Below, piece after piece: positions 14,369 to 18,189 of a DNA stretch of 64,000 bases. Numbering within the stretch: position 1 is the stretch's first letter; every line of letters begins with the position of its first letter. The translations under genes were made by a program, and so were the position numbers. The notes beneath the pieces are model-generated. The model had not been told where the DNA came from and did no database searches. It saw only the letters and a program-made list of their open reading frames with translations. This stretch comes from a virus: UHGV virus genome UHGV-0134778; one strand, 5' to 3'.

Positions 14369-14528
14369 CTGGTGCACGATTCCATACCTTAAGCAGTTAA
14401 TCTCATTACAGAGCGTTTAAAGGCGGCTTACAAGCAACTCTCTATTTCGAGCGTAGCGAGAACGCACGTCCGTTTTGACCCAAATCACCATACGCTCGGA
14501 TTTTAACCAAACCCTCGCGGCGTTTCTG

Positions 14529-14557
14529 TTGACACATTACCGCTCCAGTGATAATAT
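14529..14557 (+). promoter_or_regulatory. sigma70-type promoter
   Basis: TTGACA (14529-14534), 17 nt, TAATAT (14552-14557). Confidence 0.5.
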
Positions 14558-14577
14558 CCACACATCATTTGGAGAAT

Positions 14578-14679
14578 ATGGGATACACAATGAAAACATT
14601 GTCAGAGGTTTTGGTGGTGATCCTGATGATCATTACGTCCATAGTGGCTGTTGCCGGAATACTCACGGGTGGAACATGA
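14578..14679 (+). CDS. micro-protein, hydrophobic (33 aa)
   Basis: ATG 14578 is 21 nt after the -10 of promoter 14529-14557 and preceded by GGAG; VLVVILMIITSIVAVAGIL is transmembrane-like. Confidence 0.3.
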   Translation: MGYTMKTLSEVLVVILMIITSIVAVAGILTGGT

Positions 14680-15009
14680 TAAACACACATGCATCTGAAG
14701 AGACATCCAAAGGAGTGACTATATGTCCCTTGGCTGAGCCAGTGAAAGAGGAAAACTTAGATTCTGAAGATTCTCCATCTTCGCTCCAGGTAGATCCTGA
14801 GGCTGATGACCTAACGTGGGAAGACATCGTAGACATCTGGTTCTCCATTATGCCTGAGCACGAAGAGTTCAGAGGTGGCAGACTATGAAGCACCGAGCCC
14901 ACACAGGTTCCTCATGCTAAAGCATGGCCTGAAGAGGCAAACGTGCATAATTCCTGTGCATTGGAACGTATAAAACCCTGTTCACACTCTCATTTCTAGA
15001 GGAGATTTC

Positions 15010-15225
15010 ATGAAGATAGAAATATTTGGTGGAGCTGACAACACTTGTGGCCTGATTTACCTCGAATTCGATGAATCGTACCTGCCAGAAGTGTTAAACA
15101 TGGATTCTGTTGCTGAGGCTTTGGGAGTAAGTCCTAAAGATCTCTACTCTGGTGCTGAGATTGATGGTTGGGAGGAGACCATGAACATCGATTTCAGTGA
15201 AGTAGGTGATGAACCGCTGGACTGA
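15010..15225 (+). CDS. small acidic protein
   Basis: 71 aa, MKIEIFGG...; RBS AGGAG. Last gene of the rightward block. Confidence 0.5.
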   Translation: MKIEIFGGADNTCGLIYLEFDESYLPEVLNMDSVAEALGVSPKDLYSGAEIDGWEETMNIDFSEVGDEPLD

Positions 15226-15350
15226 CACACAATTAGTTGCCCGGCTAAAGTGCTGGAAGCACCCATAACATCTTCCAACTAAATTTCCTACCAACACAGT
15301 TACTTACCCACCACACATGACTGTTTGCTTGTTTAGTGAGCAGTCATCCC

Positions 15351-15378
15351 TTGACATTCTTGCCTATCTTGATAAAAT
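15351..15378 (+). promoter_or_regulatory. sigma70-type promoter reading into non-coding DNA
   Basis: TTGACA (15351-15356), 16 nt, TAAAAT (15373-15378); no ORF with an RBS in the next ~300 nt. Confidence 0.45.
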
Positions 15379-16671
15379 TAAGTTCTTCTCTTTTCTTTTA
15401 CCGAGTAATTCGGGTTTTCTGTTCTCTTCGGTTTGAAGGGGTATGGAGATACACCTGAGTGAACAGGGTGAACAACCGAACCTTTAGCTATGGCATTAGC
15501 ATGGCGAAGCGGACGGGTGACGAAAGAGGGGCCGGAGGACACCAGTCACTGCCATATAGTATATGGGTGATAACCTGAAGAGTCTGAATAAGTGTTTAAG
15601 TACCAGTCAGAGGAAAAGGTGAATGGTAGCCGAAGGGGGAGGGGGGTTTCTTATATCTTTAATTTGTATACTTTATATACACTTGTAAACCAATTCAATT
15701 AGGATCTGTTTACCACACAAAGTGGATGGAGACAAATATCACCTATTAAACTTGAATTATTTATAGAAAATACCACAACACTACTTAAGTCTTTGATTTT
15801 ACACACAAATCCTACAGATACTCACCCTCCATATTTAACATACTTGTAACATATCCCATACTCTACCTGTCTGATCAATTTACCCAACTACATCCCCATA
15901 TTTTTCCTGTCTGTACTACCCCTGCCCCGCCGGGAGTCCCGTCATATCTGGCTTCCCAGCAAATATCACACCCACAAATATCATTGCCTGAAGAGGGTTT
16001 CATCCCATAATACACACCTTGCCTGAAGAGCGATTCATACACCAACTAAATTTTTTAATTGACCCCTCCCCGCCGCCGGAGAGGTTGGCTTTTCCCACAC
16101 AGGCCTGAAGAGTCAGCCAGAAATATCTGAACAGGCCCAGTTATACCACGATTTTGACATGACCGACAGGAGTGCTACCCTGTCAGGAGCCGGTAGCGAC
16201 TGGAGTGCTGCCAGGCGGACGAAATGGGAATACTTCTCATTCTTATAACAATTCTCAAATATCGAGGCAGTGAGGCAAATTAATAGGTGAGGCCGTTCAC
16301 ACAGTGGCACAACATTTGCAACCTATCTTGTGGGGTGAATGAGAATACCTATCATTGTGAGAATAGTTATCATTACGGGCAATTTAACATAATACCCATT
16401 ATGCGCACCACTGGCGATACATACAGGGATTGATAACATGGGTTACTGTTTACGCACATAACAATTATATTTCTTACTATTTGTGCGGGATATAGTTAGC
16501 AACCAATAGATTAGATATTGACCTGCGGACTTCTGACCGTCCAGACGTCTAAACGCCCACACAACAAGGGTTATACATACATTCCTGAATGTAAACAGGG
16601 CCGCAAAAATGCTACCATACCAGTTTGTAAATTTTTCATGCAGCACTTGACAAAGAGGAGAAAAACTTGTC

Positions 16672-16720
16672 TGACACTTTTGCCACTTTTGACACTTTTA
16701 CCTTTGACACAATATGACAC
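16672..16720. repeat. cluster of four TGACAC boxes
   Basis: TGACAC at 16672, 16690, 16705 and 16715, embedded in repeated CACTTTTGACAC words. Confidence 0.5.
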
Positions 16721-16750
16721 AATAACGGCTGTTACTATTCCATATCTCAC

Positions 16751-16805
16751 TGTTTACGCATAGACTGTTTACGCCTGAATAGTTTACGCCCAAACTGTTT
16801 ACACA
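16751..16805. repeat. four iteron-like direct repeats (C/A)TGTTTAC(G/A)C at 14-16 bp spacing
   Basis: TGTTTACGC at 16751 and 16767, AGTTTACGC at 16781, TGTTTACAC at 16797. Further copies of CTGTTTACG at 16446 and 17267, and inverted at about 16590. Confidence 0.6.
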
Positions 16806-16815
16806 GAGATGATGA

Positions 16816-17109
16816 GCCATGCCATTCGTTTGCATGAAAACAATTAACAAGATAACAATTAACAAGTTAATAATCTTTCGCTGGCTATGCCAGGTGACTA
16901 GGTCACCCCTTCGGGCGTTTATATGACATAATATAAAAGCAGGGCAACTATTAGAAGATCTATAGTTGCCTTGCTTGTTATGTCATGATTAACTAAATAC
17001 AAGGCAACTATGATCTGAGTAATAGATTGCAGAAAAACTATCACGGGGGTGATGGTTACTGCTTTTATATTATGTCGCGACTCCGTCGCGCCATGCCATT
17101 CGTTTGCAT
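16816..17109. repeat. 20-bp direct repeat pair flanking a nested inverted-repeat structure
   Basis: GCCATGCCATTCGTTTGCAT at 16816-16835 and 17090-17109. Inside: 18-bp perfect inverted repeat GACATAATATAAAAGCAG (16926-16943 / 17059-17076) and four copies of GGCAACTAT/ATAGTTGCC. Confidence 0.65.
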
Positions 17110-17722
17110 AGTTGCCTTATTGTTACAGGTAAAATAATTACATTATTAATTATTTCTTATCTTTCTCTTAGTCATCTAATGATTCCAGTCAGTATAGTAA
17201 TGTACAGTAAACATTAGACGACTAAAGATTTCTCTGTTTATGATAACTCATCGTGATAATTTCGGGCTGTTTACGAAAAATGTTGACACCTGAGCTGATT
17301 TATGTTATGCAGTCTACACGAATAATTATTTTATGCAGGTATTGACTATTCCGTTATTCTGTGGTTGGAATAAATACTTTGCAGGCTATAGAATGGCGTG
17401 CGTACGTGAATTCTGAGATCTGGCGGCTATAGTTATACTCGATTTTTCGCGTAGAACACGCTTTAGATGCTGTGTAAGTGTATGACTTATAAAGATTTTT
17501 AGTTGTTGACAAGATATTGGAGATGTGCATCAGGTTAAAATTTGTGCAATAGCGGCATTACGTGCACTTTTGGGAGAGAAAACGGGTAAAAATGGACTTG
17601 CTACCACACAATGAAAAATTATGCAATAGTTATTTTCCATGTATATTTGTACAGTATGTGGGATTGATGGCTAGTCAATTATTCCACTTGCCAGGTAGGG
17701 CCGTTTATGGTAGGAGAAGAGC

Positions 17723-17750
17723 AGACAAAAAGAAAGGGGCCTAAGCCCCT
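17723..17750 (-). terminator. intrinsic terminator closing the leftward gene block
   Basis: Minus strand AGGGGC-TTAG-GCCCCT followed by TTCTTTTTGTCT; lies 20 nt past the stop of 17770..18189. Confidence 0.7.
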
Positions 17751-17769
17751 TGATAATTCAGTTAAAAAA

Positions 17770-18189
17770 TTATAATGATTCGTATATTTCAAAAATCCGA
17801 TTTGCCAGGTCGTTACGGTAGCTGAATTTTTCCTCACGTTTGATCATAAGATCTTTATAGCCGTACTCTTTAAGCACTTCATTAACTTTATGGCGGCATA
17901 CTTTCATATTATCCTGCGCGTCACCAATAAATCTGTTGCTATGGTGCATGGCTTTAATTTCTTCTTCCAGGACCAGGGCAACTATGCGGACCGGATCAAG
18001 CTGATAGGCGGTAACATCCATGCGGCATTGTAAACGGCTTTTTACGTCTGCCACCGGATATACTGCAACCTCTTCCCCGTCAACATTGACAATAATTAGT
18101 TTACCATCGATTTCGAATCCTTTCGCCGCCGGACCGTGACAAAAAGCGTTATCAAAGCTATATGCCGGATTATTAGATTTAATGTTCAT
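17770..18189 (-). CDS. hypothetical protein
   Basis: 139 aa. First gene upstream of the minus-strand terminator at 17723-17750; promoter 18239-18267 and RBS AAGAGG upstream. Confidence 0.55.
   Translation of the reverse strand: MNIKSNNPAYSFDNAFCHGPAAKGFEIDGKLIIVNVDGEEVAVYPVADVKSRLQCRMDVTAYQLDPVRIVALVLEEEIKAMHHSNRFIGDAQDNMKVCRHKVNEVLKEYGYKDLMIKREEKFSYRNDLANRIFEIYESL

Follow-up and report, generated by a model that had tools for sequence, protein, structure and literature searches.

In a 64-kb window of the viral genome UHGV-0134778 (the whole stretch of DNA that we analysed; all coordinates are positions in it), the 9-mer CCTGAAGAG is a real, conserved, one-strand-only signal just inside the right-hand direct terminal repeat (DTR) of rV5-like phage genomes. 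The initial annotation had noted five copies of a decamer within 1.2 kb and judged them too frequent for chance, and both statements hold. RCCTGAAGAG occurs at exactly five sites (14927, 15573, 15986, 16021 and 16103), all on the + strand, and nowhere else in the 64 kb, compared to an expectation of 0.26 per window from 100 dinucleotide shuffles, none of which reached five. Because the base that precedes CCTGAAGAG can be G, A or T among relatives while the 9-mer is kept, we take the 9-mer and not the decamer as the unit (copies 1 to 5, starting at 14928, 15574, 15987, 16022 and 16104). Consecutive copies are spaced 646, 413, 35 and 82 bp apart and lie at -1286, -640, -227, -192 and -110 relative to the first DTR base. 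They all read towards the DTR and fill the last 1.3 kb ahead of it, with the cluster ending 102 bp short of the repeat. Chance does not account for the motif, which is probably a recognition site, in line with the binding site that the annotation had offered as one option. Our preferred reading, to which we give somewhat less than even confidence, is that CCTGAAGAG is a terminus-associated recognition site, most likely for concatemer-junction processing or packaging by a conserved protein that acts on duplex DNA.

The window belongs to a Vequintavirus, an rV5-like E. coli myovirus, and is 92–95% identical to ~120 database genomes. Its + strand gene block ends at 15225 and its − strand gene block at 17770, with 2.5 kb of non-coding DNA in between, which appears in the rV5 genome paper as a 2.5-kb 'non-coding' box with no function described (PMC3606486). 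Phage Gotham has an annotated 459-bp DTR that is identical at both ends of its record, and this repeat maps to 16214–16671 with 95.9% identity, marking the physical genome end. Several database records begin or stop at ~16671, and DTRs of 458–459 bp have been published for the genus Vequintavirus (PMC7471380; PMC6563267). On the basis of the Gotham annotation, the left DTR boundary is TGCTGCCA^GGCGGAC (16206–16220, + strand), with the cut, marked by the caret, between 16213 and 16214. This boundary is conserved across Vequintavirinae genera. The A73-like phages A73 and UPEC06 have TGCTGCCA^GGCACGG, and the 462-bp identical ends of the UPEC06 record stop exactly here; Mydovirus KPP-1 has GTGCTA^GACGGAC, with its published DTR (116,316–116,829) on the junction and the KP12 record starting there; among Seunavirus, PVP-SE1 and EspYZU15 have GTGCTA^GACGGAC, and 4MG and GAP31 have GTGTTA^GACGGAC. 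The conserved boundary gives a sequence rule for locating genome ends in arbitrarily opened records. The literature searched gave no description of either the motif or the boundary, and nothing usable on the T7 arrays discussed below.

All five copies are kept in position in 12 Vequintavirus genomes, with only three single-base changes within the motif (two genomes are changed at copy 4 and one at copy 5). Differing cells in the alignment amounted to 0.6% for the motif over all five copies, compared to 6.1% for the flanks (±12 nt), roughly tenfold higher, and 10.2% for the non-coding stretch overall. When copy 2 was set aside because it lies inside a conserved block, the values were 0.8% for the motif and 7.7% for the flanks. 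The cells are not independent, as the genomes are related; counted by column, again without copy 2, 3/36 motif columns vary versus 24/96 flank columns (p = 0.05). Conservation stops sharply at the edges of the 9-mer. The genome-wide count proposed by the initial annotation gave nine copies in the complete Gotham genome (137,025 bp), five of which are the cluster and four of which are intragenic (1.25 expected under a first-order Markov model), and so did not extend the motif into a genome-wide class.

The search in related phages that the annotation had also proposed was more productive: same-strand copies precede the DTR boundary in four Vequintavirinae genera. In eight genomes drawn from Vequintavirus, the A73-like group, Mydovirus and Seunavirus, we counted 28 CCTGAAGNG sites on the + strand (5, 1, 1, 3, 4, 4, 6 and 4 per genome) and none on the − strand within 1.6 kb upstream of the boundary; within 1.6 kb downstream there were none on the + strand and three on the − strand. 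In an unbiased count, CCTGAAGAG and its 1-nt shifts were the only 9-mers on the + strand upstream that are common to all four genera, and BLAST of the window's non-coding DNA against the other three genera found no similarity. This conservation beyond alignable DNA is the strongest evidence for the motif. The complete KPP-1 genome has TTGACCTGAAG at two places only, both beside the DTR; 5/13 CCTGAAGNG sites lie ≤1.7 kb from the boundary, and the seven exact copies cluster at the terminus and are otherwise scattered. The terminus-adjacent locus examined in phAPEC8, which belongs to another subfamily, has no copies. Wider scans added little. IMG/VR sequences with two copies 15–45 nt apart were mostly unrelated contigs, presumably with coding CCT-GAA-GAG repeats; a 27-mer from the conserved block returned only two new full-length relatives from IMG/VR and metagenomes; and the pattern motif-N85-115-TGCTGCCAGGC gave chance matches only, apart from a known relative.

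These results also bear on whether the copies have any function of their own, as they could be relics of the duplication of a promoter/terminator cassette, or chance. Copies 3 and 5 do lie in a longer imperfect duplication (a C-rich hairpin, GGCTTTYCC, CACA and the motif), and copies 3 and 4 form a tandem repeat of 1.6 units, reaching ~20 nt (TTGCCTGAAGAG.G.TTCAT), in which the two TTGCCTGAAGAG copies stand 35 bp apart (15984 and 16019), as had been annotated. However, chance is excluded by the shuffles, the 9-mer is kept while its flanks diverge, and the copies occur on the same strand and in the same place in four genera whose intervening DNA cannot be aligned. This explanation is largely refuted and we consider it highly improbable.

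The motif is oriented and conserved, it is limited to the 1.3–1.6 kb before the DTR in four genera, and the DTR boundary is itself conserved. From this arrangement we infer that a protein binds the motif, that this protein may be a terminase and that the binding may serve packaging. In such a mechanism, phage DNA would replicate as concatemers joined via the 459-bp terminal repeat, and the same-strand 9-mer array on the genome side of the junction would act as a polar landing pad for the terminase, either its small subunit or an accessory factor. The array would bring the nuclease to the cut site TGCTGCCA^GGCGGAC ~110 bp downstream and would set the direction in which packaging runs. Promoters that lie over or ahead of some of the copies may assist through rightward transcription, as has been proposed for phiOR in T7.

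The closest known parallel is with the terminal arrays of T7, which are said to have been named SRL and SRR by Dunn and Studier in 1983. In the T7 genome we found CCTAAAG 11 times in the first 340 bp, three of them within the 160-bp DTR and the other eight immediately inward of it, and CCTAAAGAT and CCTAAAGAGGG 107 and 78 nt ahead of the right DTR, with every copy on the same strand. Both systems combine a short exact DTR with a conserved core of 7–9 nt, variable spacers and a single orientation, and in both the copies lie directly inside the right DTR and read towards it (with the nearest copy 78 nt away in T7 and 63–317 nt away in the present genomes). The T7 core CCTAAAG(AG) differs from CCTGAAG(A/T)G at one of seven positions, and the exact variant CCTAAAGAG is found in A73, UPEC06 and PVP-SE1. 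A rightward promoter lies upstream in both (phiOR in T7 and 15351–15378 here), and the T7 A1 promoter TTGACTTAAAGTC shares its register with the KPP-1 promoter copy TTGACCTGAAGAGTC. In contrast, the T7 arrays are denser (11 copies in 340 bp) and occur at both ends, within the DTR and just inside the left end, whereas Vequintavirinae have 1–6 copies, spread across as much as 1.5 kb and limited to the genome side of the right DTR, and some of these overlap promoters or terminators. Furthermore, T7 is a podovirus and the rV5-like phages are unrelated myoviruses, and SP6, another short-DTR phage, lacks the element; thus neither common descent nor a common reader protein is proven. In a broader version of the idea, which we regard as quite unlikely, T7 podoviruses and rV5-like myoviruses, although otherwise unrelated, would both use CCTRAAG as a terminus signal common to short-DTR enterobacterial phages. 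A factor of one type, either from the host or a component of a T7-type terminase, would then recognise it in both and link rightward transcription to cleavage of the concatemer junction.

Terminase recognition sites with repeated elements are also found at lambda cosB (the R sites) and in SPP1 (the pacL and pacR boxes). These resemble the motif in being short oriented repeats within a few hundred bp of the cut that give packaging its polarity, but they have defined spacing and a known small-subunit partner, whereas the spacing here is variable and copies extend to 1.3 kb from the cut.

Several observations weigh against a role in processing or packaging. The nearest copy lies at a variable distance from the cut (63 to 317 nt, depending on the genus); within Vequintavirus, large indels occur between copy 5 and the boundary; and some copies lie 1.3–1.5 kb from the DTR, flanking the last small-gene operon. 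Several Seunavirus and Mydovirus copies coincide exactly with the -35/spacer of sigma-70 promoters or with terminator loops, which fits a function in transcription at least as well. Unlike T7, none of the eight genomes has an array inside or beyond the DTR, within the 1.6 kb downstream on the + strand. We identified no terminase small subunit or DNA-binding protein, and the nine small proteins nearby have no DNA- or RNA-binding domain in Pfam. The right end of SP6 has no CCTRAAG array, and the resemblance to T7 may therefore be a coincidence; by our own estimate a 6-of-7 match to the T7 core would arise by chance in roughly 1% of cases. To our knowledge the function of the T7 SRL and SRR arrays has never been settled, and the analogy therefore transfers no mechanism.

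The individual copies differ in their surroundings. The annotation had placed them mostly in non-coding DNA, and indeed copies 2–5 lie outside annotated genes. Copy 1 (14928–14936, + strand, 1286 nt before the DTR), which shows no differences in 12 genomes, lies between the last two + strand genes, within a 32-aa open reading frame (ORF) that is annotated in some relatives only. It is followed by CATAAT at 14946–14951 and then by the last + strand gene (ATG at 15010). Copy 2 (15574–15582, +) is within a strongly conserved block (15340–15650), and it shares its 12-mer ACCTGAAGAGTC exactly with copies in KPP-1 and GAP31. Copy 3 (15987–15995, +) is preceded by AAATATCAC-N6-AAATATCAT (15961–15984) and followed by CATAAT (16006–16011); copy 4 (16022–16030, +) starts 35 bp after it and carries a point mutation in 2/12 relatives. 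Copy 5 (16104–16112, +, 110 nt before the DTR) lies within CCTGAAGAGTCAGCC, which is homologous to the copies just past the last gene in KPP-1 and GAP31.

The possible -10 hexamers raise the question of promoters, and the initial annotation had suggested that the motif may mark a promoter class, reading 15984–16012 as TTGCCT-N17-ATAATA. These letters are present, and a promoter scanner preferred TTGCCT-N16-CATAAT at copy 3 (9/12 matches); however, the TTGCCT '-35' is not kept in relatives, which have TCACCT, TTACCT or TTTCCT beside an intact 9-mer and a -10 that is mostly kept. In copies 1 and 3 CATAAT lies 16–17 nt past the motif's CC, and that of copy 1 becomes TATAAT or TATAAA in two relatives; copy 1 combines a good -10 with a poor -35. 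No hexamer resembling a -10 stands at the correct distance from copy 2 or copy 4, and copy 5 is weak as a promoter. With the additional Gotham copies intragenic only and at about the level of chance, the motif is not a genome-wide promoter class. The promoter link does hold locally, at copies 1 and 3 and in KPP-1, 4MG and GAP31.

In these three genomes two copies per genome lie in canonical sigma-70 promoters with the motif at about -31 to -23 (TTGACC^TGAAGNG, a 17-nt spacer and TATACT or TATNCT; here the caret sets off the hexamers). Three contexts recur. In the first, the motif is at the apex of a terminator hairpin, GGGAGCC-TGAAGA-GGCTCC-TTTTCTTTT. In the second, 52 bp further on, it forms part of TTGACC^TGAAG(A/T)GTC..GTCGAT^TATACT directly ahead of the last small-gene operon. 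In the third, directly past the last gene, it forms part of TTGACC^TGAAGNGTCAGCCCTG.^TAT.CT, again with a -35 and a -10 on either side of a 17-nt spacer. The homologue of this third context in the window, copy 5 (CAGGCCTGAAGAGTCAGCC), has lost the TTGA of the TTGACC -35 that its KPP-1 and GAP31 counterparts retain.

These contexts suggest that the motif might be a local transcription-control element, that is, an operator or activator box over the -35/spacer of a few rightward sigma-70 promoters in the last 1.5 kb, through which a phage regulator would time the last small genes and non-coding RNAs towards the DTR. We regard this as the main rival of our preferred reading and as somewhat less probable than it. 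The KPP-1, 4MG and GAP31 promoters, the CATAAT hexamers of copies 1 and 3 and the homology of copy 5 are all consistent with it, and copies 3 and 5 each follow a terminator-like module, as they would if the transcription units here were short and separate. The module ahead of copy 3 (15919–15957, +) consists of a C-rich GC hairpin and GGCTTCCC and is a paralogue of 16063–16096; the one directly ahead of copy 5 (16063–16103, +) has a C-rich GC hairpin, GGCTTTTCC and CCCACACAGG, and the two share the hairpin, GGCTTTYCC and a CACA box. CCCACACAGG occurs a second time at 14898–14907, 20 nt before copy 1. However, across genera only ~8/28 copies have both hexamers, other copies are in terminator loops or lack promoter features, and the motif is missing from the many other predicted promoters of the genome. 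In the window, copy 3 is preceded by a TTG that other members of the genus do not keep, and no genes lie downstream of copies 3–5. The resemblance to the MotA box of T4 middle promoters is similarly partial: the KPP-1, 4MG and GAP31 copies share with it a 9-bp box that lies over the -35, or takes its place, at a constant distance from a sigma-70 -10, but MotA boxes number in the dozens genome-wide, whereas the motif is found at one locus and has a good -35 beside it. We found no Vequintavirus transcriptome in the literature searched. An operator and the preferred recognition site for junction processing are compatible if transcription towards the junction aids processing.

We also considered an element that acts as RNA, in which CCUGAAGAG in or near the hairpin loop of rightward transcripts would, like lambda boxB, be bound by a protein that modulates termination, processing or stability. 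All copies are on the transcribed strand, downstream of rightward promoters, and ~9/23 distinct copies are at the apex of strong hairpins with differing stems (z -3 to -5), such as GGGAGCC-UGAAGA-GGCUCC followed by a U-tract, GGGUUGAC-CUGAAGA-GUCAGCCC, and window copy 1 (GGCC-UGAAGA-GGC; dG -11.3, z -3.2). The outer pair of copy 5 covaries, being G-C in the window and A-U in most relatives, but 3/12 genomes break it. Copies 2, 3 and 4 of the window and many in other genera have no hairpin, the count of eight apical loops is close to the 6.3 expected from flank shuffles, and hairpin registers vary from copy to copy. Lambda nutL boxB is GCCCUGAAGAAGGGC, and it has in common with the motif CCUGAAGA and, at several copies, GC stems with a purine-rich loop; here, in contrast, the loop is one base shorter (a tetra- or hexaloop and not the lambda pentaloop), there is no boxA and most window copies lack the hairpin. 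Rfam gave no match, hammerhead included, and we regard an RNA-level function, as a hairpin or as a linear element, as improbable. Some copies are neither promoter nor hairpin, and therefore neither label fits all of them. What is common to all copies is their sequence, strand and place.

A number of further candidates were rejected. For a hammerhead ribozyme (CUGANGA core), Rfam matched nothing in 14500–18000, whether at gathering score or at E ≤ 10, and nothing of relevance in the whole window. Replication-origin iterons did not fit a core of 9 bp with irregular spacings, and no initiator gene was recognised. A lambda-type nut site was rejected, as only copy 1 has a hairpin and no CGCTCTTA-like boxA lies upstream. 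The rV5-like phage PhiTE carries a pseudo-ToxI, a mimic of a type III antitoxin (PMC3475682). A mimic of this type was rejected, as only 1.6 units are alike over ~20 nt; searches of 5,426 E. coli genomes and PLSDB yielded no similar DNA, save a single phage listed there as a plasmid. Inspection by eye led us to reject K-turn, LexA-box, sigma-54, Chi and boxA readings, whose defining positions do not fit. The small ORFs that run through copies 1 and 2 (19 aa each) were also set aside: in one relative an indel behind copy 1 shifts the frame, and copy 3 lacks a start codon. A tRNA/tmRNA scan found none. All five copies contain CTGAAG, which is the Eco57I/AcuI site, and GAAGAG, which is the EarI site read on the other strand; their presence within the copies is probably a coincidence.

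The motif belongs to a known but unexplained class of feature, and it would gain in importance if the link to T7 is real. rV5-like phages are widely isolated and are candidates for therapy and biocontrol, and the 2.5-kb region holds their physical genome end, a conserved DTR cut site and an oriented, subfamily-wide 9-mer. Candidate cis-elements can now be named here for packaging, end formation and late or early transcription, which is relevant to engineering, as it indicates where an insertion or deletion in these genomes would be unwise. The near-identity to the T7 heptamer offers a second, simpler system for an unexplained feature of T7; if the link is true, the few separable Vequintavirinae copies would make a 40-year-old question about the T7 arrays directly testable.

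The block that surrounds copy 2 (15340–15650) is nearly invariant in 10 relatives, with 2.3% differing cells in the 12 genomes, whereas the adjacent gene has 7.4% and the non-coding region 10.2%. It opens with a near-consensus sigma-70 promoter with an extended -10 (TTGACA-16-TGaTAAAAT; 15351–15378, +) that reads towards the DTR, contains a short hairpin with a T-run at 15401–15413, and ends in GGGGGAGGGGGG-TTTCTT (from 15635). On these sequence features, the block is a candidate non-coding RNA of ~260 nt that would contain copy 2. It has no Rfam match and a fold z-score of only -1.5, and in a search for homologues in other genera the motif itself was the sole match. G-runs of the GGGGGAGGGGGG type, which include the FtsK-orienting KOPS pattern GGGNAGGG, occur near the terminus in both Vequintavirus (15635–15646) and A73-like phages (in A73 at the start of the DTR).

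Other short sequences recur around the terminus. A CACACA box lies 2–25 nt upstream of most motif copies in all genera. TTTACCACA (15709–15717) is an 8/9 match to the DnaA-box consensus TTWTNCACA, and the CA-rich, G-poor stretch 15660–16060 has several CACA-rich boxes resembling it on the + strand. AAATATC lies 43–44 nt inside the DTR in Vequintavirus (16257–16263), A73-like phages, Mydovirus and Seunavirus; related positions are 15961–15984 and 16121–16127 and, in locus L147, 2924, 2941 and 3060. The AAATATCAC-N6-AAATATCAT pair that directly precedes copy 3 recurs ahead of the DTR in KPP-1, and T7 has TTTAAAATATACC..ATCTGAGT just ahead of its right DTR. Inside the DTR, TGAGAATA-NNNN-TCATT is repeated at 16225–16241, 16340–16356 and 16358–16374, and its reverse complement occurs three times in the terminus locus of phAPEC8 (5669, 6425 and 6604), from a different subfamily. 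Three 9-bp repeats (TGACACTTT) start right at the right edge of the DTR (16672–16702), and ~80 bp further on is a 15-bp tandem array, ACTGTTTACGC (16749–16805), with an iteron-like look; 16445 is a further site of such repeats.

The first gene beside the terminus region in every genome examined encodes a 139-aa protein (17770–18189, −) that has no Pfam match, is ~88% identical to its Phapecoctavirus counterparts and is called a 'DNA translocase' in one record. Finally, 19 'Campylobacter phage' records are 90–95% identical to this E. coli phage group (one of them, MG065644.1, is titled UNVERIFIED), and the PLSDB 'plasmid' CP057073.1 (137,565 bp) resembles a Vequintavirus genome by its size and a single 176-bp match. 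Both the 'Campylobacter phage' records and CP057073.1 look mislabelled.

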